Shown here one piece after another: positions 8,518-41,608 of a stretch of 50,656 bases of DNA. Each line of letters opens with the position of its first letter. The stretch's first letter is position 1. The DNA lies in assembly GCA_037446075.1 (NCBI GenBank), contig JBBIJH010000003.1:1-50656 (forward strand), given 5' to 3'. The notes under the pieces are model-generated. The model saw nothing but the letters and a program-made list of their open reading frames with translations, had not been told where the DNA came from and did no database searches. This DNA is from Ignavibacteriales bacterium (GTDB taxonomy: Bacteria > Bacteroidota > Ignavibacteria > UBA10030 > JAHEZR01). Made by a program: the position numbers and the translations under genes.

Positions 8518-9453
8518 ATGCGTCTATTCCGCGAGACACATATTGATTTCATGGGAAAGAGAAGGCTGTGGTACTCAGCCTCCGGTATCTTGTTGCTCAT
8601 CGGGATTCTTGGGATATTTGTGAGAGGAATTAGTTTTGGGATCGATTTCTTGGGAGGGACAGAGCTAGTCGTCCGCTTCGAGCAGCCTGTGGGGATTGGA
8701 GACATTCGCAGCGCCCTCGACCCTATTGGGCTCTCCCGAAGTGAAATCAAGACCTTTGGAAGCTCAAACGACATTCTCATCCGAACGGGCCAGCAAGCAC
8801 CCGGAACGACGATCGGAGACAGAATCCGAGAGGGTTTGAAGACCGCGTTCCCCAGCAACAACTTGACCGTGCTCAAAGAGGACAAGATCGGGCCGCGGAT
8901 TGGGAAGGAATTAAGACGGGACGCTGTGTATGCTGTACTGGCAACTTTGGTCGTGATCATGGTGTATGTCGGTTTCCGATTCAAATTCATCTACGGCGTT
9001 GCGGGAGTCGTTGCACTTTTCCACGACGTGCTGGTCACCCTCGGTGTCTGTGCCCTGTTGAACGGGGTCTCTCCCTATCTGAACCTGGAGATCACACAGA
9101 ACATGGTCGCAGCGTTTCTCACCCTCGTCGGCTTTTCCATCAACGACACCGTCATAGTTTTTGACCGCATCAGAGAGAATCTGAAAATCTATCGTTCGGA
9201 CGATCTTAAGACGATCATGAATCGGAGCATCAATCAGACACTGAGCCGGACAATCATTACCTCCGGCACCGTCTTACTTGTGCTGATGGTGCTGCTTCTT
9301 TTTGGTGGAGAGGTAAACCGTGGTTTCGCCTTTGCATTTTTCGTCGGTACAATCTCCGGCACCTACTCCTCCATCTATGTTGCCAGCGCGCTGGTTCTAG
9401 ACTGGACCTATTACCGTCAGAAAAAACTGCAGCAAATGAGGGCCGCAGCGTGA
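8518..9453 (+). CDS. secF: Protein translocase subunit SecF
   Basis: 311 aa with IDFMGKRRLWYSASGILLLIG...GIDFLGGTELVVRF and a C-terminal TM bundle. Confidence 0.95.
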   Translation: MRLFRETHIDFMGKRRLWYSASGILLLIGILGIFVRGISFGIDFLGGTELVVRFEQPVGIGDIRSALDPIGLSRSEIKTFGSSNDILIRTGQQAPGTTIGDRIREGLKTAFPSNNLTVLKEDKIGPRIGKELRRDAVYAVLATLVVIMVYVGFRFKFIYGVAGVVALFHDVLVTLGVCALLNGVSPYLNLEITQNMVAAFLTLVGFSINDTVIVFDRIRENLKIYRSDDLKTIMNRSINQTLSRTIITSGTVLLVLMVLLLFGGEVNRGFAFAFFVGTISGTYSSIYVASALVLDWTYYRQKKLQQMRAAA

Positions 9454-9467
9454 AGGGGTCGGCTGAG

Positions 9468-9803
9468 ATGGAATTCAAGATCAAACAGGAAAAAGGAGTC
9501 ACTGTGATTGCGCTGCACGGGAAGGTCGTCGGCGGACCAGATGCAACTGAGCTGCTCCAGCAGCTACACACTTTACTCGATCAGGGAAAGAAGAAATTCG
9601 TAGTGGACCTCGGGGGCGTGGAGCTGATGAACAGTTCCGGCCTAGGGATGCTCATCGGAGGATTAACAGCCGTCCGAAGGGCGGGCGGAGATCTGAAGCT
9701 CGCGAATGCTCCCCCTAAGATCCTGGGCCTCTTCACGGTCACCAAGCTCTCGAACGTCTTCACCCATTACGATTCCCTCAGGAAGGCAACCGAGAGTTTC
9801 TAA
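9468..9803 (+). CDS. STAS-domain anti-sigma-factor antagonist (SpoIIAA/RsbV-like)
   Basis: 111 aa counted from the ATG at 9468, which has AAGGGG about 10 nt upstream. STAS pattern: VTVIALHGKVVGG...FVVDLGGVELMNSSGLGMLIGG...GGDLKLAN. Confidence 0.85.
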   Translation: MEFKIKQEKGVTVIALHGKVVGGPDATELLQQLHTLLDQGKKKFVVDLGGVELMNSSGLGMLIGGLTAVRRAGGDLKLANAPPKILGLFTVTKLSNVFTHYDSLRKATESF

Positions 9804-14424: not shown

Positions 14425-16359
14425 ATGGCTTCCTCAAGAAAAAACTCTTCTGTAGCACTGGCAGCCCTCGTGGGGTTCTGCCTCACTCATGCGGCATTTG
14501 CACAAGAGGAGTTTGGGCGCGTTACTGCGGGTCCGGTCGCAGATACGTTGAGAAAACCGAATGAAACCATGCTCAGCTTCGAACGAAATCTCAGCACGTA
14601 TCTCTGGAATCTCGGCTTAAACTATCAAAGATCCTCTCCCACATGGAGTGTGGACCTGCGGCAGCTTTTTCGTTCTTCGCTCGTGCGAGTCAGCCAGAAA
14701 TTCATCAAAGATGAAGAGGCCGTAAGCTTCCTTGTCGGGAAAAAGTTGTCCGATCGTTTCGACTTTCAGCTTGACGGATCGTCCCTTGTGTTTTCCGACA
14801 ACCGGGCGATCGGGATCGATCGGGCCTCAAGCCATTCTACACTTGTGGGCTTGAGATATCTCGTCAATAACGTCGGCACCATTTCTCCGAGTATCGGGGT
14901 GAGGTTCGATAACCAGACAGGACAGCAGGACAAGGGGGTCAGTTATCGGTTCCTCACGCAGATTGGTGAGCTGGATATTTCAGGCTACAGGATGAATTTC
15001 CAAGGCAGGTTTAGTGGAGATCGAATCACACCACGGAAGGGCGAGAGTCACGCCGCCACACTGTCTGTGGAGAAGACGTTCGTCGAGCAAACGACCGACA
15101 CCTTGAGAGTCCAATTCTTCCGCAACCGGCGGGACTTCTATTTCCCTGCAGATTCGGTCGTTGCTGAGGAGTTTGGTGTCACGAACAACATCGAGCAGAG
15201 AATCGAGGAGATCATCGACGTGAGCAACGAGTTGAATTACGGGGCTGGGCGAAATCTCCTCTTCACTTTTTCCGGAAACCTCCGCCAGCGTGGAATCTCG
15301 AAGAACATCAACTACAAGACCGTGAGTTCTCTGACTGGCGGTCTTTTCGATACGGACATCTCCGAGTTTAGATTAGAGACTTTCATCCAGGGACGATACC
15401 GCTCCGAGCGCACAAGCGCACTCTTTCGGGTAATGTTCAGCGAGCGAGACGAGAACCACGAGGCGAAGAGTTTTCCCGGAGCCGACCGACTCCAGTTTGA
15501 GAGCCGAAAAAGAAACGAGGCCCGGAAGAACAACAGCTCTCGGCGAACCGCGCTTACAGGTAACGCACAGTTTGGGGTGACAAAGAGCAATGTGCTTTCG
15601 CTCAGTGCTTTTACGAGCCTCCTTCGGTATGACACGCCCAGTGCAGAGAATACGGACGACCGGGACGAGCTGCTTCTGGTCTTCTCACTCTCCGATCAGC
15701 AGTCTCTGGGGAAGAACCTCTCCTTCATCCTTTCCGCAGACGTTGTACTCAACCACACTGTTTATCTCTTCGCCAGCCGGAGTGCAAACAACAACTGGAA
15801 CCGGGTGTTCCGGCTGTCACCACGGATCGACACTCGTCTGGGCGCACGGTTCAAGACGGCGAATACGTTTGAAGTCCTTGCCAACTACACCGTTTATGAT
15901 TTTGAGGATCAAGTCTTCTCCGTTCGAAGCTTCTCGTTCCGACAGTTTTCCTTCATCGATTCCTCCACGTATCAGCTTTCTCGACGCGTTGCGTTTGATC
16001 TTGCCATTCGCCTGAAGCTCTACGAGCGCGGCCAGCTCCGCTGGAAGGAATTCAAGGAGCGACCGGAGAACTATTTTGAGGACAGGACTTTCTTCTGCCA
16101 GTTTCGTTATAGTCCAAGCGCAGGTGTTTCTGTTGCAGTCGGATTTCGCTATTTTAGTCTTACACGCTTTCGGTATCAGGCGCAGGATAGGGTTTTCGAG
16201 AATCGCCTCGTCAACTACGGGCCGACCTGCATGATCGAGTGGACGATGAAGCGAAACGCAAGGTTGCTTCTTTCTGGCTGGTACGAAACTCAGAAACAGA
16301 CGAGCATCCCGGCCAACTCTTTCTCGAACCTTGCAATGACGATGAACTTCGGTCTGTAG
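14425..16359 (+). CDS. Large hypothetical outer-membrane beta-barrel protein
   Basis: 644 aa with a signal peptide (ALAALVGFCLTHAAFAQE). Long runs of amphipathic beta-strand-like sequence rich in R/F/S/Y. No family recognised. Confidence 0.5.
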   Translation: MASSRKNSSVALAALVGFCLTHAAFAQEEFGRVTAGPVADTLRKPNETMLSFERNLSTYLWNLGLNYQRSSPTWSVDLRQLFRSSLVRVSQKFIKDEEAVSFLVGKKLSDRFDFQLDGSSLVFSDNRAIGIDRASSHSTLVGLRYLVNNVGTISPSIGVRFDNQTGQQDKGVSYRFLTQIGELDISGYRMNFQGRFSGDRITPRKGESHAATLSVEKTFVEQTTDTLRVQFFRNRRDFYFPADSVVAEEFGVTNNIEQRIEEIIDVSNELNYGAGRNLLFTFSGNLRQRGISKNINYKTVSSLTGGLFDTDISEFRLETFIQGRYRSERTSALFRVMFSERDENHEAKSFPGADRLQFESRKRNEARKNNSSRRTALTGNAQFGVTKSNVLSLSAFTSLLRYDTPSAENTDDRDELLLVFSLSDQQSLGKNLSFILSADVVLNHTVYLFASRSANNNWNRVFRLSPRIDTRLGARFKTANTFEVLANYTVYDFEDQVFSVRSFSFRQFSFIDSSTYQLSRRVAFDLAIRLKLYERGQLRWKEFKERPENYFEDRTFFCQFRYSPSAGVSVAVGFRYFSLTRFRYQAQDRVFENRLVNYGPTCMIEWTMKRNARLLLSGWYETQKQTSIPANSFSNLAMTMNFGL

Positions 16360-16400
16360 GAAGGAGGTCAAGATTGTCCACTGAAGTGAAAAGGTTTAAG

Positions 16401-16796
16401 ATGAGCATGAGCAGTAATCCGAAGCTCATTCATCGAGTAGAGAAATTCTTGCAGAAAGTAAACAGGAGTGCTCACCTGGACGAGATTCAGTTTCACAAAG
16501 TGCTTGTCTCCACGACCGAAGCAGTGAACAACGCGATCTTCCACGGAAGCGAATCCGACCCAAGGAAGAGAGTCTACATTAGATGTGAGCTCTCAAAGGA
16601 GAGACTGATCCTGACGGTGAAGGATAGCGGGAGAGGGTTTGATCCGAGAAAGCTCCGGAATCCCCTGAACAACGCGTATCTTCTGGAAGTAAGCGGGCGC
16701 GGAATTTTCCTCATGAAGACGCTGATGGATAGGGTGGAGTTCCAGTTCTCAAAGAAAGGGACGGAGGTGAGATTAACACTGCTGCTGATAAAGTAA
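16401..16796 (+). CDS. Anti-sigma regulatory factor, Ser/Thr kinase (RsbW/SpoIIAB-like, HATPase_c_2)
   Basis: 131 aa counted from the ATG at 16401. N-box-like EAVNNAIFHG and G-box VKDSGRGFDP. The track ORF begins further upstream, inside the preceding gene. Confidence 0.8.
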   Translation: MSMSSNPKLIHRVEKFLQKVNRSAHLDEIQFHKVLVSTTEAVNNAIFHGSESDPRKRVYIRCELSKERLILTVKDSGRGFDPRKLRNPLNNAYLLEVSGRGIFLMKTLMDRVEFQFSKKGTEVRLTLLLIK

Positions 16797-16810: not shown

Positions 16811-17893
16811 CTACCTTTCGTACGAGAGTGTGAAGCGGACCCTATTGCTTGAATTGTCCTTCAAAGCCCCTGCGTATAAATACTCCTTCGTGATGTAGAC
16901 GACATCAACTCCGAAGCCTGAGTACTTTGCTCCGATTCCGGCAGTCCAAGTGTTGATAGCAGGAGTGAAATCCCTTCCCCGTCCAAGTCTGAAGTAGATC
17001 ATATCCTCATAGCCTACCTGAAGGCCCATCAGATACGAAATATGTCGTAGTTCGTCAGCAAACGACTGATCGGTCCATCCGTTGATGAGTGGGGAGAACC
17101 AGGAATAGGTTTTGTCAAGTCCATTGGCATCGTTCAGATATTTGACAAGGTCGAGAGCTATTATTGATGAGAGACTTTCAAGCGCCAGCCAGTCATAGGA
17201 AATTCCGACTCGCATATTTGTCGGAATTGCTTCGTCCTGGCCGTTGAAGAAACTATACTTTGGCCCGATCTCTTTGACCGTGAGACCGAGATTGAGCCCA
17301 TGCGAGTCAGCCGAAGTGCCGAAGATCGGTTGACAAGCGCGAGATCGAAGAAGGAATCCAAGATCGAGCGCGAACAATTGAGCGGAGACGTCAATGTCGG
17401 AAAGATAGCGTCCCTCCGTTTTCATTGAGATCCTTCCGAACTTCAGTGCCACTCCTCCGGCGATGTTCTGGGATAACTGTCGCGCAAACGCCCCAGTGAC
17501 GAGATACTCCGACTTGATGAACTTGTCACCGAATATATCGTCAGTGTCCAACTTGTGATATGCATAAGAGACACCCAGCGCTCCCACATCAGGGATGCTG
17601 TAAGCGCCGGAGAAGCTGTAGAAAGGCCTCTTGATGTTACCGAAAAACTCCGCGTCTGGCCAAGGAAAAGCAAGGCCGTCAGCAGTAAGCGAAGTCGATT
17701 TTAGAGACGCGAGGCCCGCTGGGTTGTAGTAGATTGCAGACGCGTCGATGCTAACCGCTGTAGACGCCCCTGCTAAGCCAAGTCCCCTCGCCCCGGGCGG
17801 CAAGGTCATGAGGACAAGGTTTGATGCTGGCATGAACTGCTGGGCAGGTACCGAGGAAAAGGAAAAGATCAAAACGATAATGCTCCTTCGCAT
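16811..17893 (-). CDS. PorV/PorQ-family-like outer-membrane beta-barrel (T9SS-associated)
   Basis: 360 aa with a signal peptide. The N-terminal motif GARGLGLAGASTAVSIDASAIYYNPAGLA matches my recollection of the PorV/PorQ signature. The C-terminus is barrel-like. Confidence 0.55.
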   Translation of the reverse strand: MRRSIIVLIFSFSSVPAQQFMPASNLVLMTLPPGARGLGLAGASTAVSIDASAIYYNPAGLASLKSTSLTADGLAFPWPDAEFFGNIKRPFYSFSGAYSIPDVGALGVSYAYHKLDTDDIFGDKFIKSEYLVTGAFARQLSQNIAGGVALKFGRISMKTEGRYLSDIDVSAQLFALDLGFLLRSRACQPIFGTSADSHGLNLGLTVKEIGPKYSFFNGQDEAIPTNMRVGISYDWLALESLSSIIALDLVKYLNDANGLDKTYSWFSPLINGWTDQSFADELRHISYLMGLQVGYEDMIYFRLGRGRDFTPAINTWTAGIGAKYSGFGVDVVYITKEYLYAGALKDNSSNRVRFTLSYER

Positions 17894-17962
17894 AGCTTGC
17901 TAGTTCCCTACGGCGGAAAATGAATTGCGCGCAGGAGAGTAGATTCATCCATGGGAATCCTA

Positions 17963-18406
17963 TTACCTAATTGGCCACGATCCTCCAGTGGCGATTAAAG
18001 TCAGTGCATACGCCACGGCTGCTATGAGAACAAACGGAGCTGCGGCGTGAAGAACACGGTTTACGACCGTTTGGAGGCTCCGTTGTTCACAATGCCGTAT
18101 CCAGTCGCGGGCACACTTAGTCGTATCTGTCGAAAGCACGGGACTATCGACTTTGCTGATGAAGCCAAGGATAAACATCGCCACAGATCGAGTCGAGTCC
18201 TCCAGCGTGTCTGCGGGCAACTGCAGGGGTTGGGAGGCACTTTCACTGAGCATCTCAGAGTACTTGCCTACAATTAAGGTGTGTGTCAATATGTTAGGTG
18301 TTTCAGCGGCCTGAAGATACGTACGCGCCGTCGTGTCGGCAGGTATCAACTGAGAATAAAGACCCGACGCGACCAACAAAAGAGAGCGGAGCTGTAGCCA
18401 AGTCAA
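17963..18406 (-). CDS. Small hypothetical membrane protein, diverged paralog of 19321..19779 (possibly decaying)
   Basis: 147 aa with only a TTG start; no ATG lies between it and the upstream stop. The N- and C-termini are hydrophobic. Shares ADT(T)AR...QA...TLIxG and VDSxxL..DT(S/T)(R/K) patches with the 152-aa protein. Confidence 0.35.
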   Translation of the reverse strand: MTWLQLRSLLLVASGLYSQLIPADTTARTYLQAAETPNILTHTLIVGKYSEMLSESASQPLQLPADTLEDSTRSVAMFILGFISKVDSPVLSTDTTKCARDWIRHCEQRSLQTVVNRVLHAAAPFVLIAAVAYALTLIATGGSWPIR

Positions 18407-18457
18407 AAAGGCGATGCATTTCAGAACCCATACCCTTGAGCAGATTGTTCGCTTTCC

Positions 18458-19239
18458 TCAATCCCCGACATTCGGCTCTTGAACCCAGGTTATCGATTTG
18501 GAGATGATGTAGAATGGGTGTTCACTAGTATTTCCGAACCCGTGCTCTGAATAATCTTCCTCGAAGGCCCACCAAGAATAATGGCGCGCGGGAGAGACAG
18601 TTGAGGGTGTTTTGGCAACTCCATTTGTCCAGAAATCACCGATTGCACCGATGTACGGGAGCCACTCCGGAGTACCGGCATTTGGACCCATGTGGTTGTA
18701 CCAGAAATAACTGTGCACAGTACAGGAAAAGCAGCTTGTAATTTCCCCAAGGTTTACAAGAATATCGTACGGGAAGTATAGATCAAGTCCGCTTGGCTCG
18801 TAGTCAACGTTGTCAGTATAAGCGTCCTGGGGGAGACCAACAAACTCGACTTCGAGATGATAAACTCTTTCGTACCGATTATACGAAGCGTGCGAATTAG
18901 CCGCTAGCCAGATGTGGGGGTCAGTATGATTGGCATCGTAACCCAGTTGGACACCAGAGTAGCTCGGAGAGTTACTGGTGGACCACCAAGTTTGGCTAGG
19001 GGTCCTAGTTTTTCCGCCGGAATGCAGATAAAAATTGACCGCAATTGGTACAAAATTACTGCCAGACGTGCCTTCGAGCTTGATAGCGACATGCTCCCAA
19101 TCTTCTTCACATCTGCCACAGATCTGTTAAACACGGCGATTACGTTTCCGTCAAGGAAAAAAACACAGCCCATTGCTGCCGCTCGCAGAGCCCAGGGGAC
19201 AGCGATGATGAAATCCATCACGACAACAGGATGAAACAA
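18458..19239 (-). pseudogene. 5'-truncated, frameshifted copy of the Vps62/DUF946-like gene (orphan C-terminal ~220 codons)
   Basis: On the reverse strand, 19126->18458 is an open frame of 222 codons with no ATG/GTG/TTG until 18718 and a TAA immediately upstream (19127-19129). It reads CEEDWEHVAIKLEGTSGSNFVPIAVNFYLHSGGKTRTP...IWLAANSHASYNRY...WVQEPNVGD. That is about 65-70% identical by eye to residues ~150-372 of the 19814..20932 ORF. Weak similarity continues in another frame up to ~19239. Confidence 0.7.
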
Positions 19240-19320
19240 GAGGTAGAAATGTGAAATACGATCACTCTTTTCGTCGGAACTGCCCGGAGATCTACAATCA
19301 GACTGATAACCTGCAATCTT

Positions 19321-19779
19321 TCATTTTCCCGTAGCCGCGGCGGAATGGTATAGGTACCACAAGAAAAAAACGACTACCGCGGCTACAAAGAGGATCGGCC
19401 GTATCCCGTCCCTAGGGATCTTCGCTTGAGTTCTTGATGAATCGGGGACAGTACGAGAGGTATCCACGCAAAGCAAATTCGTGCTGTCGACGCCCACCCT
19501 CAAAACGCGCTCCTTGGATATGCTATCTTGACACACCTCGGGCTCAGCTTCGAAAATGCTCGCATTCATTCCCCCAATGTCTCTGATAATCTCTCCATCA
19601 GGCTGCTCGTGTGCCTCATCCTGCCCCCTTATGAGCACTGTAGCAACAGTGACGGCTTGCACTACTCTAGCTGTATCTGCCAGTTGCTCAGGATTTGCAG
19701 GTGCGACAATCAGCGCCAAACATCCCAGAAAACCAACTACACTCGCGAACAAAACTCCCTCAATAGCCGATTTAATCAT
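19321..19779 (-). CDS. Small hypothetical two-TM membrane protein
   Basis: 152 aa with an ATG start 34 nt downstream of the Vps62-like stop. N-terminal TM (GVLFASVVGFLGCLALIV) and C-terminal TM (ILFVAAVVVFFLWYLY). No family recognised. Confidence 0.5.
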   Translation of the reverse strand: MIKSAIEGVLFASVVGFLGCLALIVAPANPEQLADTARVVQAVTVATVLIRGQDEAHEQPDGEIIRDIGGMNASIFEAEPEVCQDSISKERVLRVGVDSTNLLCVDTSRTVPDSSRTQAKIPRDGIRPILFVAAVVVFFLWYLYHSAAATGK

Positions 19780-19813
19780 CTGATCACGGGAAACACGTGC
19801 AACTCGCGCTCGA

Positions 19814-28554: not shown

Positions 28555-29468
28555 TCTCTTAGCTCCCTCCCTGTCAAGTGAAGGAAAACGTCTTCGAGTG
28601 TCGCTCGCCGGAGCGATAAGTTTTCCAGCTTGAGTTGATTCATAAGTCGCGGAACAATCTCTCTCGGATTCTTTGAGAGAATCTCAATCCTCTTGCCATT
28701 GACTTGAAACCGCATACCCTCTGAGTCAACCTTCAGCGCCGTCAACGCGCTTTCGAGGTCCGAGGGCACGACTTCCACCACCTCGTCACCAATGAACTCC
28801 TGTACAAGCTTCTTGGGTTCTCCCTCCGCAAGAATCTTCCCCTGGTCCAGAATGACCAACCGATCACAAAGCCGCTCGGCCTCGTCCATGTAATGAGTCG
28901 TAAGCAGCACCGTGATACCACGGCTCTTGAGTTCATTGATTTTCTCCCAGATCAAGTGGCGCGCTTGAGGGTCTAATCCCGTTGTAGGTTCATCCAGAAT
29001 GAGGAGTTCCGGCTCGTTGATCAGTGCGCGAGCCAGAATCAATCTTTTCTTCATGCCGCCCGAGATATGCTCGACGACGGAGTCTTTTTTTTCCATGAGG
29101 TGGAAGAAGTCAAGTAGCTGAAAGGCTCGTGCGCGTGCATCGCTCCTTGGAATTCGAAAGTAGCGTGCATAAACTAAGAGGTTTTCGAGTACGCTGAAGT
29201 CCGGATCAAGATTGTACTCTTGTGGAGCCACCCCCAATCTCCGCTTGACTTCTCGAGGATGTGCTTTCACATCAAGGCCTAATATGAAGAGCTGACCCGC
29301 TGTGATGGGCGACACGGCGTACATCATTTTCATCGTGGAAGTCTTGCCCGCCCCGTTTGGCCCGAGGAAGCCGAAGCATTCGCCCTTCTGTACCTCGAGC
29401 GAAATGTCATCGACAGCGGTGAACTCGCCATACTTCTTCACCAAATGTTGTGCGACGACGACACTCAT
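28551..29468 (-). CDS. ABC transporter ATP-binding protein (DrrA/NodI-like)
   Basis: 305 aa with Walker A GPNGAGKTS, signature SGGMKKRL, and Walker B LLILDEPT. Confidence 0.95.
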   Translation of the reverse strand: MSVVVAQHLVKKYGEFTAVDDISLEVQKGECFGFLGPNGAGKTSTMKMMYAVSPITAGQLFILGLDVKAHPREVKRRLGVAPQEYNLDPDFSVLENLLVYARYFRIPRSDARARAFQLLDFFHLMEKKDSVVEHISGGMKKRLILARALINEPELLILDEPTTGLDPQARHLIWEKINELKSRGITVLLTTHYMDEAERLCDRLVILDQGKILAEGEPKKLVQEFIGDEVVEVVPSDLESALTALKVDSEGMRFQVNGKRIEILSKNPREIVPRLMNQLKLENLSLRRATLEDVFLHLTGRELRE

Positions 29469-30217
29469 GACGAGATAAATAGTTTTACTGATGCTATCAG
29501 AAGAACCAGTCCAAGGACACGTTTGATCGTTTGATTCGAATAGCGCACAGCGCCGAGGTGAGACCCAAGCCAGCCGCCAGCAAAGGCTGCGGCTACAAAC
29601 GGGATGAGCGTCCCCACTTCAAACGTACCTCCGCTAACTCTGCCGCCGAGTCCCGCGATTGAGTTCACAAAAATAAATGCTGCCGATGTGGCTGCGGTTC
29701 TCTTTGCGTCTCCCCAACCAGCTAGTAAAATCAATGGACTCAGGAAAATTCCGCCCCCAACTCCAACAACTCCTGACACAAAGCCAATCACCGCCCCCAC
29801 AAGAAACGCGATAACCAAAGAGGGACTTTTGAAACTCTGCTCTTCAGGTCTCGTCCCCACCTCAAATAGAAATCGCAACGAGGCAAGGAGGAGAACGACG
29901 GCAAGGATTATAAAATAAACATGCGCGGCAACGTGAACCAGTCCTCCAAGGAATGCCGCCGGAACCGATGCAATAAGAAAGGGCCATGTGAGTCTCAAAT
30001 CAAGATGCCTGGCGCGAGAGTAGGAGAGTAAAGCAATTCCAGCAACGAGTAGATTGAGGATCAACGCCGTAGTAGACATCGCAGCGGGAACAACAGCGAA
30101 AAACGATAGAACTGCCAGATAACCCGAAGCACCACCGTGTCCCACGGACGAATAAAGAATTGCAACGCCGAAGAAGAGAATAGAAATGAGGGAGATGATC
30201 GGAAGAGAAAAATCCAT
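29465..30217 (-). CDS. TauE/SafE-family (DUF81) anion exporter membrane protein
   Basis: 250 aa, ~8 TM, with duplicated G-rich helices (VGHGGASGY ... GVGGGIFLSP). Its start overlaps the MtaB-like stop (TAATG) and its stop overlaps the ABC ATPase start (ATGA). Confidence 0.85.
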   Translation of the reverse strand: MDFSLPIISLISILFFGVAILYSSVGHGGASGYLAVLSFFAVVPAAMSTTALILNLLVAGIALLSYSRARHLDLRLTWPFLIASVPAAFLGGLVHVAAHVYFIILAVVLLLASLRFLFEVGTRPEEQSFKSPSLVIAFLVGAVIGFVSGVVGVGGGIFLSPLILLAGWGDAKRTAATSAAFIFVNSIAGLGGRVSGGTFEVGTLIPFVAAAFAGGWLGSHLGAVRYSNQTIKRVLGLVLLIASVKLFISS

Positions 30218-31605
30218 TAGTCTAATCGGTCAAGCCCGTAACTTTCGGGAAGGAAAAGATCTCTGTACTTCGCGGATATCGATTCGAGAAAGCGGTCTTC
30301 ATCATCGGGAAGGGAACTTAGTTCGCCGTGCATCCTTGCCATCCATCGTTGTTCGGAAGCAGGGAGCCTCAGCCTCCGATCCTGGGCCGCTTCGTTGATG
30401 ACCTGCCACGCTTCCTGAGCCGCCGCGACAGTCCGGTGAAAGTTGTTTTTCTCCTTGACAATGGCTCGAGCAAATCGGATCGTTGAATCTGGAGTCAAGA
30501 CAAGCGCCTGAGGAGTGCTGAGAGCGTCGGAATCGACGAGGAGCTTTTGAAGCATACCCTCGCGATTTGTCCTCAGTGCCTCATTGAAAAGTCGGCAGTC
30601 GTAGGCCAGAAGTTCCAAGTATGCTTCAGGTGCCGAACCCGACAGCAGCCGGATGTTCTGCACAGACTCGTTGCTCCACAGGTCGCACATTGCCGCGCTG
30701 ATGTTGCCGATGGGACTGAAGTGTGCACACGTTGCAGATTTGCCCTCCATTGAGATTGGACAGCCAGTGATCGCCTTGAGGATAGGTCCTTCGTACGCAC
30801 AATCTTTCGACGGACCACTTGCGCCGTGTTCAAAGGCCACGAGGCTCCGCACAGCACTCGCCGCGCGAATCACTGCCGCAAATACCTCGGGCAGCATCTG
30901 CTGGCCAGCAAGTTGCATCGCCGTGTTTGCAAATCCACATGCCGAGTCTGCACCAGAGAGTATATTCTTTTCGTCTGCAATGCGAGTGATGTTCTCCCAC
31001 AAGAACGCTACGTCCCGCGGGGCCAGAACACCGAGCGCAAAGATCACTCCATGGAGATCACCATCCAGCATGGCTTGATCGTTGACCTCTTTTCCACCGA
31101 TGGACTCAATCGAAAAGAGGTCGGCTCCTGCATCGGCACAAAGTTCAAGGGACTCTAACATTTGTTCCCATGGTTTTCCCGACCGCAGAACTGGTGGACG
31201 CGCGTTATCACGGATGTCGGTGATCGTCACACGAAGCGCAGACTTCAGTCCATAGTTTTCGTGAGCTTGACGGAGATGCTTCTTCAGGATTCCTGTTATT
31301 TCGGCCCCCCACTCTGGATGCTCAGTCATCTGTGGCAGAAGCTCAAACTCCACCATCAGGCCCGTCAGACTCAATCGCCTCGCTGCACTTTCGACCATTG
31401 AGCCGATTTCTTCATAATGACCGAGGACTTCTGGCCATGTTTGCGCCTCGATGGACATCGTCGGGAGTGTGAAATTAATTTCGGGAAACACCTGCCCCGC
31501 CCCGATCGTGAGACCAAAGCCACACGTGATCGGGTTCGGGGCTTTACCGAACATCAATTCGACAGGATCGGGGATCGCGAGGGTCGTATAGCGTCGTAGC
31601 TTCAT
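30217..31605 (-). CDS. MtaB-family protein (methanol:corrinoid methyltransferase B-subunit homolog)
   Basis: 462 aa, collinear by eye with my recollection of Methanosarcina MtaB (461 aa). Shared blocks: FG..P....GL.IGAG...PEINF, SIESIGGKE, GADSACGFANTAM, SLVAFEHGASGPSKDCAYE, KAITGCPISMEGKSATCAH, WSNES, LAYDC. Confidence 0.8.
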   Translation of the reverse strand: MKLRRYTTLAIPDPVELMFGKAPNPITCGFGLTIGAGQVFPEINFTLPTMSIEAQTWPEVLGHYEEIGSMVESAARRLSLTGLMVEFELLPQMTEHPEWGAEITGILKKHLRQAHENYGLKSALRVTITDIRDNARPPVLRSGKPWEQMLESLELCADAGADLFSIESIGGKEVNDQAMLDGDLHGVIFALGVLAPRDVAFLWENITRIADEKNILSGADSACGFANTAMQLAGQQMLPEVFAAVIRAASAVRSLVAFEHGASGPSKDCAYEGPILKAITGCPISMEGKSATCAHFSPIGNISAAMCDLWSNESVQNIRLLSGSAPEAYLELLAYDCRLFNEALRTNREGMLQKLLVDSDALSTPQALVLTPDSTIRFARAIVKEKNNFHRTVAAAQEAWQVINEAAQDRRLRLPASEQRWMARMHGELSSLPDDEDRFLESISAKYRDLFLPESYGLDRLD

Positions 31606-31640
31606 GTCAGTTTCAACACGGGGGAGTAGCTCAAAGATAA

Positions 31641-32681
31641 TTACTCAACACTGACCGGATATCGACCAAATTCCTTCACCGTGTCGAGCATCGCCTTATA
31701 GTTCTCAGGCTTCACTGTGTGATGGATCGTATTCGTGGAGGAGATGATGTATCGCCCACCGGGAGCCACTGCACGCAATAACCGCTTCACCTCGCTGACA
31801 ACTTCAGAAACAGAGTGCTCTGAAAGCAACGGCCCGCAATCCACCCCTCCCATCACGACGAGATGAGCAAACCGGTGCTTCACGGCAAGAAGCTCCATTC
31901 CAGCCGTCGCATCGAAGGGATGCAAAGCATCGATGCCTGTGGCTATCATGTCATCAAGAATTTGATTGATGTTTCCGCAGCAGTGTTTGATGCAGAATGC
32001 CCCTTTCGCGTGCACAGCCTCGGCGATCTCGCGGATCGCCGGGAAGAAGAATTCCTGAAAATGCTTTGGCGAAATGAGGGGGGCCTCAACGGATCCATAA
32101 TCGTCGCCCAGCAGGATAAAGTCCGCCCCTAACTCGATGGCTCGTTCAGCGATCGCGATATTATGATCGACGGAAAGTCGCACGAGTCGTCGAACTAGAT
32201 CGGCATTCTCAAAAAGATCCATCATGAGCTGCTGCATGCCCCGGAGATAGCAGGGATAACTGAAGCCATCGTGAAGATGCATCCCAACAAATTTCTTTCC
32301 TTTGAAGCGAGAGAGGAGCCGCCGGAGTTCATCATACCTGCGCTCTGCATAGGGGTCAGGTGGTTTGTACCCTTCGAGATCTTCCGGCTTCTTGATCGGC
32401 CCGTCGAGCGGCATGGAGACAATCTGTGCGCCGTATTGCCGGGTAATCCCCCATTCGTTCACTACAATCCGCTGCGCGGCATCGAGGACTTTTTCCTCAT
32501 AGAGCTTTGAGGGGGTGTTAGTTACAACGACATCGATGTCCATTGCCTCGACAAAGTCAGGATAGTCGGCTCCCGGAAGAAGAGCTTCAATAACCGCCGG
32601 GTCGATGAGAAGCTCAAAAATAGGGACTCGGTCGGGTTCTTCGCCCTGAAAAACAGCAAGTACTCGTTCGTGGGAAATCAC
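31641..32681 (-). CDS. Uroporphyrinogen-decarboxylase-family protein (MtaA/CmuA-like methylcobamide:thiol methyltransferase homolog)
   Basis: 346 aa with a GTG start and URO-D-like layout. Contains a putative Zn motif H-C-C-G (IKHCCGN) and a later Cys (GGVDCGP). Confidence 0.8.
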   Translation of the reverse strand: MISHERVLAVFQGEEPDRVPIFELLIDPAVIEALLPGADYPDFVEAMDIDVVVTNTPSKLYEEKVLDAAQRIVVNEWGITRQYGAQIVSMPLDGPIKKPEDLEGYKPPDPYAERRYDELRRLLSRFKGKKFVGMHLHDGFSYPCYLRGMQQLMMDLFENADLVRRLVRLSVDHNIAIAERAIELGADFILLGDDYGSVEAPLISPKHFQEFFFPAIREIAEAVHAKGAFCIKHCCGNINQILDDMIATGIDALHPFDATAGMELLAVKHRFAHLVVMGGVDCGPLLSEHSVSEVVSEVKRLLRAVAPGGRYIISSTNTIHHTVKPENYKAMLDTVKEFGRYPVSVE

Positions 32682-32789
32682 ACAGAGTGAATCACTTATG
32701 AGACGATCTTGTGACGGACGGTAGAAAGCTCTATCAATCTACATATTCTTCATAGAAGATTCCAGAAAAATATGCTCTCGGTTTTTCAC

Positions 32790-32818
32790 TTGACAACGTG
32801 AAAAGTCTTGGCTATCGT
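32790..32818 (+). promoter_or_regulatory. Sigma-70-like promoter candidate for the namZ-like cluster (TTGACA-17-TATCGT)
   Basis: TTGACA at 32790-32795, a 17-nt spacer, TATCGT at 32813-32818. Confidence 0.35.
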
Positions 32819-32898
32819 TAGGCACGGTGGGGTCCGCTTCGAAACCATCGGTGTTTCTCTTGCTATTCTCGACCCGCAACCCTTTTTCTATTAACATC

Positions 32899-34149
32899 AT
32901 GAATGCCCACACCATGCTTCTCATCCCAACTCTATTTCACCTTTCGATGCTGCCTGCTTCAGAAACCATTCGGGCAAGCGTTATTAAGGTGGGTGCAGAC
33001 TTATTGCTCGAGAAGTACATGAGTATAATAGAGAATAAGCGCCTCGGCCTGATCTGTAATCACACGTCTGTCCTTCGGGACGGTCGCCATCTTGCTGATG
33101 CTCTGAGTGCATCACCCCATGCGAAACTTGTTGCTCTCTTTGGACCGGAACACGGCATCCGCGGCGACGCTCCCGATGGGAAAAGTGTACAGCATGGCCT
33201 TGACTTGAAAACCCGGATTCCGATCTACTCGCTTTACGGCGCAACAAACAAACCCACCCCGGAGATGCTGAAAGACATCGAGCTCCTTCTGTTTGACATC
33301 CAGGACGTTGGCGCTCGGTTCTACACCTATGTCAGCACACTTTCACTTTCGATGGAAGCAGCGGCAGAACAAGGAATTCCCTTTGTTGTACTGGATCGGC
33401 CCAATCCAATCCGCGGAGATCGAGTCGAAGGCCCGGTGCGTGAGGATTCTCTGAAATCCTTCGTCGGCCTTCATCCCATCCCCATTGTTCACGGCATGAC
33501 CGTTGGGGAGTTGGCGAAGATGTTCAATGAAGAAGGCTGGTTGAAGGACGGAGTGAAGGTAAGCCTGAGCGTCATTCCAATGGAGCCTTGGAAACGAGAA
33601 TTCTGGTACGATGAAACCGGCCTGCCCTGGATCAAGCCCTCTCCCAACATGGCAACGATGAGAACCGCTATTGTTTACCCAGGAGCCTGCCTGATCGAGG
33701 GGACAAATGTTTCGGAGGGTCGGGGTACGGAACATCCATTTGAATGCCTTGGCGCACCGTGGATAGCGGGTGAGAAGCTGGCGGAGACTCTCAATTCATT
33801 CGGTCTGCCGGGAATCATGTTTCAGCCGATTGAATTCATACCCGTCGATATCGAGCGAGTTACGGTCGATCCAAAGTACGAAAACGAACTCTGCCGTGGA
33901 ATCTATCTCAATGTGATCGATCGAAACGCTTTCCAGCCAGTCCGAACCGCAATCTATATCCTCTCTTCTCTGAAAAAGCTTTACCCGAACGATTTTGCCT
34001 TCCGCGACCGTCGTTTCGATCGGCTTGCGGGTGTCTCGTGGATACGAGAGATGGTGGATGGTAGTACGAGTCCAGAGGAAATTGTAACGAGGTGGAAGGA
34101 GGATACAGAACGCTTTCGCACGTTGAGGAAAAAATACCTCATATACTAG
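32899..34149 (+). CDS. DUF1343-family protein (exo-beta-N-acetylmuramidase NamZ-like)
   Basis: About 416 aa counted from ATG 32899; the track ORF starts at GTG 32827. Contains RLGLICNHTS, DIQDVGARFYTYVSTL, VLDRPNP. Confidence 0.85.
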   Translation: MNAHTMLLIPTLFHLSMLPASETIRASVIKVGADLLLEKYMSIIENKRLGLICNHTSVLRDGRHLADALSASPHAKLVALFGPEHGIRGDAPDGKSVQHGLDLKTRIPIYSLYGATNKPTPEMLKDIELLLFDIQDVGARFYTYVSTLSLSMEAAAEQGIPFVVLDRPNPIRGDRVEGPVREDSLKSFVGLHPIPIVHGMTVGELAKMFNEEGWLKDGVKVSLSVIPMEPWKREFWYDETGLPWIKPSPNMATMRTAIVYPGACLIEGTNVSEGRGTEHPFECLGAPWIAGEKLAETLNSFGLPGIMFQPIEFIPVDIERVTVDPKYENELCRGIYLNVIDRNAFQPVRTAIYILSSLKKLYPNDFAFRDRRFDRLAGVSWIREMVDGSTSPEEIVTRWKEDTERFRTLRKKYLIY

Positions 34150-38156: not shown

Positions 38157-39800
38157 CTAGGTAGATGAGCCCGGTTCACTCTGGCTCTCGCCTGAAATGA
38201 TTCGACGTCTCTCCTCAAGCAGGCGATGGAAACTCTGCTTGAGATCTTTTGATTTCTTCACCATCACCTCAAAGTGTTCCCGAGGAACAGCAAGAACGTC
38301 GACAGATGTAGCAGAGCGGACAATGGCCCGACGTACGTGCGCCTCGTCAAGAATAGCCATCTCGCCAAAGTATTCGCCCGGCCCGAGCGTGGCCAGAAGC
38401 TGCTCTTTCCCATCAGAGGCAAACTCAAGGACTTCGACTTCGCCTTGATCGATAATGTAGAACCGGTCCGCGGGGTCGCCAGGCCAGACGATGATCTCCC
38501 CCGGCTCGAAGTGGGCACGACTGATGGGCTGCGCTCGAGAGAATCGATACTGGACAATGTCTCTGGGGAAAAGAAGATCAAGCGTCCAGTCCATCATGAC
38601 GCGAATCTTTCGATTCAATCCTGGCAACTTCATGAGGTATATCGTCCGCCAGAGCCACCACGCTACAAAGCCCGAGATTTGGAGTCCAAGAATCTGTGCA
38701 ACCGCACTCCGCTTCCCAACCGTCGCAAGCTGGCCAAGTCCGGTGAAGGTGAATGGCTTCTGAAGCTTTCCTCGAATCGAGGCCAGGATGTTTCTCGCCG
38801 TCGTCTTCGGCTGTCGCATGGCAAACTGCGCCATCGGCGGATATGGTTTTCCGGTCTTCGGGTTGATGAGACTCGCATTATCACCAAGAGCCCAGACACC
38901 CTCGTAACCGGGAACCTGCAGGAACTCGTTTACGATGATCCGGGCCTTGTGGTCCTTCCTGCAAGCAAGCGTGCCGATGACAGGATTTGCTCGAATGCCC
39001 GCCGTCCAGACGAGGGTTCGTGTAAGAACGGCTGTCTCATCGTCAAGCCTGATGCGGTCTTCCTCCGCCTCAAGAAGAGAACAACCCAAGCGAATCTCCA
39101 CGCCGTCGCGTTCCAGCTTCTTCTTCGCATATTGACCAAGCCGTTCTGGCATTTCAGGCAACAGCCTTGGCCCGGCTTCCAGCAGGAGAATTCGGAGCTC
39201 TGACGGGTGCAGACGTGAGTGAAACTTCACGGCGTCGTGCAGCAGGCCCGTGATTTCCCCCACTGTTTCCACGCCCGTCAATCCACCGCCAGCGACAACA
39301 AAGGTTAGCAGCGCCTTTCTCGCTTCCGGGTCATCCTCTAGATCTGCGTCGTCAAGCTGGCCAAGGACGTGATTACGGATCTGGATTGCATCGGAAAGCG
39401 TCTTCAGTGTGAGGCCATATTTTGCCACACCCGGGACCATGGACGTGTCCGTGACGCTGCCGAGTGCTAGGACAAGATAATCGAAGGTGAAATGATGGTT
39501 GTGACGCGGAAATCCGTGTGCAACGGTGACACGCCGATTCACAAGATCAATGGACTGAACATCGGCAGTACAGAATCGCGTGCGGCGAAGGAGATGCCTG
39601 ATAGGATTGACGATGTGCCGAGGGTCGAGACTCCCCGACGCCACCTCGGGCAGCATCGGCTCGAAGACGAAGAAGTTCTCTTTGCTGACGAGCGTGACGG
39701 TGAAGTCGTCTGAGCGCCGGAGAGCTTTTTCTAACTCTAACGCGGTGTAAACACCGGCGTATCCTCCGCCGAGGATGAGGATGTGGGGTTTATGTTCCAA
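38157..39800 (-). CDS. ndh: Type II NADH dehydrogenase (NDH-2) fused to a C-terminal cyclic-nucleotide-binding domain
   Basis: 547 aa with a TTG start; TAA lies two codons upstream, so no alternative start exists. Rossmann motifs ILGGGYAGV and VVAGGGLTGVE. The C-terminal ~120 aa are CAP-type cNMP-binding (RFYIIDQGEVEV, GEYFGEMAIL, RRAIVRS). Confidence 0.9.
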   Translation of the reverse strand: MEHKPHILILGGGYAGVYTALELEKALRRSDDFTVTLVSKENFFVFEPMLPEVASGSLDPRHIVNPIRHLLRRTRFCTADVQSIDLVNRRVTVAHGFPRHNHHFTFDYLVLALGSVTDTSMVPGVAKYGLTLKTLSDAIQIRNHVLGQLDDADLEDDPEARKALLTFVVAGGGLTGVETVGEITGLLHDAVKFHSRLHPSELRILLLEAGPRLLPEMPERLGQYAKKKLERDGVEIRLGCSLLEAEEDRIRLDDETAVLTRTLVWTAGIRANPVIGTLACRKDHKARIIVNEFLQVPGYEGVWALGDNASLINPKTGKPYPPMAQFAMRQPKTTARNILASIRGKLQKPFTFTGLGQLATVGKRSAVAQILGLQISGFVAWWLWRTIYLMKLPGLNRKIRVMMDWTLDLLFPRDIVQYRFSRAQPISRAHFEPGEIIVWPGDPADRFYIIDQGEVEVLEFASDGKEQLLATLGPGEYFGEMAILDEAHVRRAIVRSATSVDVLAVPREHFEVMVKKSKDLKQSFHRLLEERRRIISGESQSEPGSST

Positions 39801-40705: not shown

Positions 40706-41608
40706 CTACTCCTCCGTAAAGTAGTCGGAATCTATTTTCTTAATCTCATAGGTTGCAACCGGGCTGACACCCACACTATGATCGATCATGAGTTGAGCAA
40801 GCTGCTCTCCATCGATAAGGACAATCTTGCTGTCAATCCGTGTTGCGTAATCATAGGCTTCGCGAGAAAAGTCAGACGTTGTGATGAAAATCCCTTTCTT
40901 TGCCCTTTGCCCCTGAAGAGCACCAGCAAATTTTTGAATCTCTGGACGACCGACCGTGTTCTCCCAACGCTTGGCTTGAACGTAAATGATATCCATTCCA
41001 AGCCGGTCCTCTTTGATTATTCCATCAATTCCCTCGTCTCCGCTTCTGCCGATTGCTTCACCTGCATCCTTCCTAGTGCCACCGTATCCCATTTTCACCA
41101 GGAGTTCAACAACGACCCTTTCGAAGAGGCTGGGAGGACTCGATTTGATCTGCTGTAGCAGTTCGTTCACAAGATTCGCCTTTATGCTCTGGAAGGCCTT
41201 CTCCAGTACCTCCTCCGGCGTCTCCTCCGGAGCCCTTCCCTCTCGCGTTTCCTCGGTTGCTCTCCTAAGAGCTCTAAACTCTTTGAATTCTATGAACTGA
41301 TCCAGAAATTCCACATTGATCTCCAGAGGATTCTGGGCTAGAACCTTGAGACCTCTCTCGGTTATTTTGTAATAGCCTCGCCTAGTGGACTCAAGGAGAC
41401 CAGCTTTTTTCATGTACGTCCTTGCCCACCCGACGCGATTGTCAAAAACGGCCTGCTGACCGCTCGGTAGAAGCTGTCGGCGCTCCTCATCCGAGAGCTT
41501 AAAGCCTGTTGCAAGAGCCTCAATGGTCTCACGCAGTGAGTGTTCGTGCTGATCGCTCGCGTACCTCAGGAGAGGAAGCATTATAGATTCATAATCGGGA
41601 ATGGCCAT
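40706..41608 (-). CDS. mrr: Mrr-family restriction endonuclease (Mrr_N winged helix + Mrr catalytic domain)
   Basis: 300 aa with IPDYESIMLPLLRYASD...NRVGWARTYMKKAGLLES (Mrr_N). Catalytic region GDEGIDGIIKEDRLGMDIIYVQAKRW. GGAGG lies before the ATG. Confidence 0.9.
   Translation of the reverse strand: MAIPDYESIMLPLLRYASDQHEHSLRETIEALATGFKLSDEERRQLLPSGQQAVFDNRVGWARTYMKKAGLLESTRRGYYKITERGLKVLAQNPLEINVEFLDQFIEFKEFRALRRATEETREGRAPEETPEEVLEKAFQSIKANLVNELLQQIKSSPPSLFERVVVELLVKMGYGGTRKDAGEAIGRSGDEGIDGIIKEDRLGMDIIYVQAKRWENTVGRPEIQKFAGALQGQRAKKGIFITTSDFSREAYDYATRIDSKIVLIDGEQLAQLMIDHSVGVSPVATYEIKKIDSDYFTEE

Follow-up and report, generated by a model that had tools for sequence, protein, structure and literature searches.

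Introduction

How does an MtaB-family methyltransferase operate when the locus that encodes it holds no gene for a corrinoid protein? This question is raised by a 50,656-base stretch of DNA from an Ignavibacteriales bacterium (contig JBBIJH010000003.1 of assembly GCA_037446075.1; the whole stretch is referred to here as the window), in which the gene of a URO-D-family protein lies upstream of that of a homologue of MtaB, the methanol:corrinoid methyltransferase of methanogens. An initial annotation, made from the sequence without database searches, described the two products as a methyltransferase pair in a non-methanogen, reported that neither a corrinoid protein nor a reductive activase was encoded in the window, and proposed that the corrinoid carrier is encoded elsewhere or that the pair performs a different, possibly corrinoid-independent, methyl-transfer chemistry.

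That the MtaB family occurs in non-methanogens, and widely so, is already known. What is new here is a conserved, lineage-specific module composed of a distinct URO-D subfamily, MtaB and a TauE/SafE (TSUP) transporter, without any corrinoid accessory genes nearby. Most likely, this module is a known and widespread system in an uncommon layout, and not new chemistry.

The MtaB-family protein and its zinc site

Both open reading frames (ORFs) of the pair were recovered with the coordinates and lengths first assigned to them, and the motifs singled out in the 462-aa translation (SIESIGGKE, GADSACGFANTAM, KDCAYE and GKSATCAH) are all present. The protein matches the Pfam MtaB profile (PF12176) with 524.6 bits against a cut-off of 25, residues 4-457 covering profile positions 2-460 of 460, and is collinear with MtaB of the MtaABC system of Methanosarcina barkeri (2I2X chain A; residues 2-457 on 2-460, E=1.5e-100), to which it is 41% identical over 450 aligned columns. 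The family assignment and the collinearity proposed in the initial annotation are thus borne out. With the equivalog model of the methanogen enzyme (NCBIfam MtaB_Meth, NF040651) the score is 439 bits, under the cut-off of 720, and the 462-aa protein is therefore a member of the family and not a methanogen-type orthologue. It also differs from M. barkeri MtaB in its bacterial host and in having no adjacent mtaC, mtaA or ramA.

The zinc site is intact. Residues E167, C223 and C269 align with E164, C220 and C269 of M. barkeri MtaB, which we take, by the numbering of the paper on 2I2X, to be its zinc ligands. E167 and C269 are conserved in 165 of 165 family sequences, that of the window included, and C223 in 164 of them; the zinc ligands of MtaB are described as two Cys and one Glu (review PMC6257451).

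The window belongs to a lineage of seven loci (the window itself, L081-L084, L090 and L091) that hold six distinct MtaB sequences. Constraint on these sequences was assessed over a near-invariant set of 159 alignment columns, each at least 97% invariant in 98 B12-linked members of the family. In the lineage 157 of the 159 columns are unchanged, the two exceptions being A75S, with Ser in five of the seven lineage sequences, and P128I, a position at which Ile is present in M. barkeri too; a control clade lacking B12 genes shows one change at near-invariant columns. No sign of relaxed or redirected constraint on the lineage MtaB is seen, and because 157 of the 159 columns are kept, the same zinc and Co(I) mechanism is probable. 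To judge from the sequence, the lineage probably uses the same chemistry as its B12-linked relatives, with a carrier encoded elsewhere or a free cobamide.

The retention of the near-invariant positions of B12-linked relatives bears on whether the enzyme could dispense with cobalt, either by direct transfer of the methyl group from donor to acceptor or by hydrolysis or rearrangement of a methyl ether on MtaB. Such chemistry is disfavoured because a switch to another mechanism would be expected to have reshaped the funnel that faces the cobamide; what speaks for it is confined to the local absence of corrinoid, activase and riboswitch, described below, and the placement of the lineage on a separate basal branch of the tree. 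To our knowledge, no member of the MtaB family works without a corrinoid, and we know of no enzyme in which zinc alone makes methanol a methyl donor for ordinary nucleophiles. Cobalt-free chemistry is considered highly improbable at this locus.

A conserved module without corrinoid genes nearby

The URO-D, MtaB and TauE genes occur in the same order at all seven lineage loci. TauE, assigned by PF01925 (121.9 bits, residues 13-246 on profile positions 3-237 of 237), lies directly downstream of MtaB in each of them and was detected at no other MtaB-like locus. The MtaB sequences of the lineage are 75-91% identical among themselves and 55-67% identical to all others. A 77%-identical module is found on contig JBAWAH010000048.1 of the metagenome-assembled genome (MAG) GCA_049589195.1, and two of the lineage loci (L090 and L091) were contributed by a metagenome scan. 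Upstream of the three genes the flanks vary, with NamZ in the window and in L084, M48 and LemA in L081 and PhyH in L083; after TauE an ABC transporter is encoded in L081, L082 and L084, and a GFO_IDH_MocA gene instead in L083. Since the order of the triad is kept while the flanking genes differ, the triad is the conserved unit.

The local absence of carrier genes is solid, and the initial annotation was right on this point. Pfam searches with all the plausible ORFs of the window, down to a length of 110 aa, matched no B12-binding, RACo or DUF1638 domain. Hidden Markov models (HMMs) of the corrinoid, RACo and DUF1638 proteins encoded beside relatives of this MtaB were run on the six-frame translation of the whole window and returned noise only (best E=0.22; for RACo, best E=0.42). 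No cobalamin riboswitch or other RNA was detected with Rfam at gathering thresholds in the whole window, and no Rfam match was obtained at E<=1 over positions 27000-33200.

A B12-binding domain hidden by fusion to the MtaB or the URO-D protein was ruled out, as both are single-domain proteins of canonical length.

MtaB-like loci in other bacteria

More than 5800 database homologues of the protein were found at E<=1e-10, the nearest of them labelled "Bacteroidota bacterium" MAGs. A scan of genome contigs gave at least 600 stretches; the matches listed are 56-70% identical, and no member of the window's lineage is among them, the best hit to the MtaB query being put at 67%. Hosts among the matches listed include Ignavibacteria, Bacteroidota, Kryptoniota and KSB1 as well as Acidobacteriota (Terriglobia, Bryobacteraceae, Solibacter), Planctomycetota, Verrucomicrobiota, Roseiarcus and Methylomirabilota. 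The MtaB-like clusters of such bacteria share with the window a 55-67% identical MtaB with the same invariant positions and the same broad setting, that is, MAGs from soil, sediment and peat. In Stordalen Mire, mtxB genes are carried by more than 1,700 bacterial MAGs of 19 phyla, and transcription of mtaB and methoxy-type genes is reported there for Acidobacteriota (PMC10805028); bacterial mtaB homologues have been noted in other surveys as well (PMC11264602; PMC4842900; bioRxiv 10.64898/2026.08.27.747368). A literature search turned up no bacterial MtaB of these phyla that had been characterised biochemically, no work treating DUF1638 jointly with MtaB and no account of sugar demethylation by a corrinoid-dependent route.

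The gene neighbourhoods of the clade were compared by clustering neighbouring ORFs, annotating the cluster representatives with Pfam and applying family HMMs over 165 loci. At most loci the gene immediately upstream of MtaB (directly upstream and within 400 bp at 41 of 75 loci) encodes a protein of some 215 aa that has B12-binding_2 and B12-binding domains (PF02310+PF02607) and a DxHxxG motif. Genes for RACo activases, DUF1638 proteins and members of the URO-D family often lie nearby, so that a cluster consists of a corrinoid protein and MtaB with or without these three. In a well-flanked sample of 49 distinct loci outside the lineage, with at least 9 kb on both sides, a B12 gene lies within 2.5 kb of MtaB in 35 (71%), RACo in 22 and DUF1638 in 20, and no B12 gene is present in 14 (29%). 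By these counts the clade is corrinoid-linked as a rule, and a missing adjacent carrier is not rare. The window's lineage differs from the clusters of other bacteria in never having a B12-binding gene nearby, in carrying a different URO-D subfamily and in the TSUP gene, found at no other locus.

The loci without a B12 gene form subclades of their own in a neighbour-joining (NJ) tree, and two orphan MtaB copies occur in one Ignavibacteriota MAG (L014 and L022). As stable subclades of this kind exist elsewhere, trans-acting or shared carriers are plausible. Of the two alternatives left by the initial annotation, a carrier encoded elsewhere is favoured, given that the clade is usually found beside a DxHxxG protein and that the zinc ligands and 157 of the 159 positions are kept; corrinoid-independent chemistry is not. 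The rarity that the annotation implied does not hold either, in view of the number of homologues, the transcription reported for Stordalen Mire (PMC10805028) and the roughly 29% of well-flanked loci that also lack an adjacent B12 gene.

A rival reading is that no carrier protein gene is needed anywhere in the genome and that a free, or loosely and directly bound, cobamide shuttles the methyl group between the MtaB-like and URO-D proteins. B12 genes are missing from all seven lineage loci, yet MtaB keeps the family-invariant positions, and about 29% of the well-flanked family loci are likewise without a neighbouring B12 gene. According to the title of Sauer & Thauer 1999 (Eur J Biochem 261:674, as cited in PMC13618148), free cob(I)alamin can replace MtaC in vitro, so that M. 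barkeri MtaB and MtaA would work with it. The Co(I) form would still need reductive reactivation, however, and no activase is encoded in the window; moreover, most relatives encode a carrier beside MtaB. Free Co(I) cobamide is very oxygen-sensitive, and we know of no natural system without a carrier protein. A carrier-free shuttle is regarded as unlikely, and a carrier encoded elsewhere in the genome is preferred.

Other arrangements were observed in the wider clade. A second MtaB subclade without B12 genes (L010:12152-13492, L093, L096, L026 and L109) has the order MR_MLE, M20, MtaB, ROK, URO-D, a 747-aa protein, aldolase and PfkB. Its URO-D protein is of a type that also has HxC, with Asn at the position of the third ligand of MtaA. 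Given this subclade, the combination of MtaB and URO-D without a neighbouring carrier arose or persisted more than once. In MtaB and B12 clusters of Ignavibacteria and Bacteroidota, two large conserved proteins are encoded (L016:11408-13741 and L016:5017-7260; also in L003, L007, L008 and L018), one of about 777 aa and one of about 747 aa with a signal peptide, for which no Pfam or PDB sequence match was obtained. Beside them lie ROK, confirmed by Pfam, and PfkB, glycerate kinase and EamA genes, read from the sequences; related clusters without B12 genes hold MR_MLE (confirmed by Pfam) and M20-like genes. The genes around the large proteins point to a sugar or sugar-acid pathway round the methyltransferase.

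The URO-D-fold protein

The 346-aa product of the upstream gene matches the Pfam URO-D profile (PF01208) over its full length with 125 bits. It scores 77.5 bits with the MtaA/CmuA model TIGR01463 (cut-off 235.4), 85.1 with PRK06252 (cut-off 244) and 33.6 with the HemE model TIGR01464 (equivalog cut-off 302.95). Its best sequence match in the PDB is MtaA (4AY7), with 49 bits. An AlphaFold2 model (pLDDT 94.6) likewise has 4AY7 as its top fold match, with a TM-score of 0.76-0.78; true HemE structures follow close behind (0.70-0.76), and the structural alignment to 4AY7 has 18% identity. The nearest solved relative by both sequence and fold is therefore the methylcobalamin:coenzyme M methyltransferase MtaA, which supports the protein as a candidate for the second methyltransferase (MT2). 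With the MtaA/MtbA enzymes it shares the TIM-barrel fold and an aligned HxCGN, KH233-C-C235-GN lying on H-I-C-G-N of MtaA.

Among 33 members of the subfamily, H135, H137, D138, H173, D193, D194, K232, H233, G236, H254, N317 and H320 are invariant, and C235 and C282 are at least 90% conserved. Relatives outside the window's lineage, 48-64% identical, were found in Firmicutes, Anaerolineae, Actinobacteria, unclassified MAGs and others. The function of this subfamily appears to be undescribed.

URO-D-superfamily homologues of methanogen methyltransferases are known outside methanogens from mlp gene clusters of type 1 (Kountz & Balskus, PMC10418091), which the window resembles in this respect. Those clusters, in contrast, encode several MtaA-like Mlps with a corrinoid protein and a RACE activase and no MtaB, and their hosts are obligate anaerobes, mostly Firmicutes (PMC10418091). 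Other MtaB clusters carry other URO-D subfamilies; in Acidobacteria these include genuine HxC...C types, and in Ignavibacteria a type that lacks the HxC metal motif.

Proposed mechanism

On balance, the favoured account is that of an orthodox zinc-dependent methyl-O:Co(I) enzyme served by a carrier and an activase from elsewhere in the genome, with the URO-D protein as candidate MT2 and the TSUP protein moving a compound. The MtaB-like enzyme would polarise the methyl-oxygen bond of methanol, or possibly of another methyl-O compound, on Zn2+, and the methyl group would pass to a corrinoid in the Co(I) state, with the carrier and the activase that reduces it supplied in trans. For the second half-reaction, from methyl-Co(III) to an acceptor nucleophile, the URO-D-fold protein is the leading candidate, and the TSUP protein would move substrate, acceptor or product.

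Several findings weigh against this account. No corrinoid, activase or cobamide-related gene is seen in the 50.6-kb window, nor any B12, RACo or DUF1638 gene in the flanks of six related contigs (up to 10 kb a side, 0.7-2.6 kb on some), and a carrier acting in trans is hence assumed, not observed. The NJ tree places the lineage as a separate basal branch, and the lineage may possibly have diverged in function. As for the URO-D protein, the position of the third Cys ligand of MtaA (PGCGI) is occupied by the invariant Asn317; identity to the URO-D genes of B12-containing MtaB clusters is only about 25%; and in eight contexts of subfamily relatives that were examined MtaB occurs in none, and none has an adjacent corrinoid gene, the single B12 gene among them lying about 8 kb off. 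As its relatives elsewhere have neither MtaB nor a corrinoid gene next to them, the MT2 role is weakly founded.

The H-x-C...C zinc pattern proposed in the initial annotation stands in part, for the HxC does align with that of MtaA, whereas the Cys counted with it, C282, aligns to a Ser of MtaA and not to its zinc ligand. With scores, third-ligand Asn and contexts that differ from those of MtaA, as do the additional invariant His and Asp residues, "MtaA-like" describes a resemblance and not a membership, and the label "MtaA/CmuA-type" is not retained.

The contexts of the subfamily suggest another role for the URO-D protein. Five of the eight are sugar/polyol operons or glycoside-hydrolase neighbourhoods with DeoR/LacI, PfkB, FGGY, class II aldolase, zinc alcohol dehydrogenase, an ABC transporter, GH31 and GH4, and not methylotrophy clusters as for MtaA/MtbA. 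In Firmicutes and Anaerolineae the subfamily is thus placed by itself in such operons or beside glycoside hydrolases (loci of the subfamily noted: L085, L088, L089, L170 and L172). The protein might thus be a metal-dependent enzyme of sugar/polyol metabolism and not a methylcobamide methyltransferase; it would precede or follow MtaB in a catabolic route, its substrate being, for example, a methylated sugar or cyclitol or the product of its demethylation, with the MT2 step carried out by another enzyme. Its relatives at 48-64% identity stand alone in such operons, its own invariant set (HxHD, H173, DD, K-HxC, H254, N317 and H320) is unlike the H/C/C site of MtaA, and Ignavibacteria MtaB-like clusters lie among ROK, PfkB, aldolase, MR_MLE and glycerate-kinase-like genes (labels based partly on Pfam and partly on reading of the sequences). 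The fold and the best sequence match, on the other hand, are still those of MtaA, the HxC is conserved, and the remaining three contexts, all of one contig lineage, are housekeeping ones after dtd and relA. We know of no enzymatic precedent for a sugar enzyme of the URO-D fold. This role is doubtful on present evidence, yet of the alternatives it is the one to be taken most seriously.

The sugar-operon contexts of the URO-D subfamily and of the wider MtaB clade would also fit a methyl-ether donor other than methanol, and by analogy with them the donor may possibly be a methylated carbohydrate instead of free methanol. It is quite improbable that the URO-D, MtaB and TSUP proteins would form a self-sufficient two-enzyme system for O-demethylation of a methylated sugar, uronic acid or cyclitol, with no dedicated corrinoid protein and with a free cobamide or none. 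The favoured account remains the orthodox enzyme with a carrier and an activase encoded elsewhere.

Gene neighbourhood and other features of the window

The coordinates of the module and of the genes next to it are compiled below. The ORF map gives the order URO-D, a 35-nt gap, MtaB, TauE/SafE, ABC ATPase and ABC-2 permease; the starts of TauE, of the ATPase and of the permease each overlap the stop of the gene before, and a GNAT gene follows 23 nt after the permease. Because it overlaps the TauE stop, the ATPase gene is probably co-transcribed with TauE. Promoter-like signal in the divergent intergenic region is limited to sigma-70-like consensus matches.

Features of the module and its immediate surroundings (positions in the window)
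Feature	Coordinates	Strand	Basis and remarks
ABC-2 type permease, NodJ-like, partner of the ATPase	27760..28554	-	Pfam ABC2_membrane; NCBIfam nodJ 145.6 bits, under cut-off
ABC transporter ATPase, NodI/DrrA-like	28551..29468	-	Pfam ABC_tran; NCBIfam NodI 332 bits, under cut-off
TauE/SafE (TSUP) membrane transporter, 250 aa	29465..30217	-	PF01925; start overlaps MtaB stop
MtaB-family zinc methyltransferase, 462 aa, ATG start	30217..31605	-	PF12176, full length; presumed methyl-donor:Co(I)-corrinoid methyltransferase (MT1)
URO-D-fold protein, 346 aa, GTG start, HxH-D / H / HxC / H / N..H subfamily	31641..32681	-	PF01208; candidate MT2
Divergent intergenic region between the URO-D and NamZ genes	32682..32826	.	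ORF map; presumed promoter region of the module

The host belongs to the Bacteroidota/Ignavibacteria group of bacteria and is no methanogen, and the gene content of the window supports the non-methanogen context claimed for the pair. A PorV-like type IX secretion protein, an S46 peptidase, SurA, SecDF and NamZ are encoded, along with the tricarboxylic acid cycle enzymes aconitase and malate/lactate dehydrogenase, an ArsR regulator and a P-type metal ATPase. Recent horizontal transfer of the module was considered and set aside, as its guanine-plus-cytosine (GC) content equals that of its surroundings and its chromosomal neighbourhood of S46 peptidase, DoxX, PDZ, LemA, M48, Ldh and HMA ATPase genes is found in L081 and L083 as well.

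Further features were observed away from the module. At 38157-39800 (-) a type II NADH dehydrogenase (Pyr_redox_2 and NDH2_C) carries a fused C-terminal cyclic-nucleotide-binding domain, an architecture also present in L083. A 644-aa protein without Pfam match is encoded at 14425-16359 (+) beside an RsbW-like HATPase_c_2 anti-sigma-factor kinase (16239-16796, +), a pair found in L081 as well, and a STAS-domain protein lies at 9450-9803. The group at 16811-22642 (-) consists of a PorV-like outer-membrane protein followed by proteins of 147, 152, 372 and 126 aa without Pfam match, and also holds a 432-aa protein with a FlgD_ig-type C-terminal domain; these genes may form a cluster for cargo or accessory proteins of type IX secretion. 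An Mrr-type restriction endonuclease (Mrr_N and Mrr_cat) at 40706-41608 (-) is located within a stretch of lower GC (0.49), which may be a small defence insertion.

Implications for the MtaB family in bacteria

Taken alone, the window is a modest advance, consisting of a rearranged module in which the catalytic subunit looks orthodox. Its bearing is on the family as a whole. In peat, soil and sediment, homologues of MtaB from bacteria are plentiful and are transcribed; they are now read as methanol methyltransferases that compete with methanogens for methanol. A sizeable fraction of the genes that enter metagenomic "mtaB" counts, those of the URO-D, MtaB and TSUP module included, is encoded without a carrier or activase nearby, and members of the clade lie time and again among genes of sugar catabolism. 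The alternatives are carriers shared in trans and a range of substrates and partners wider than methanol.

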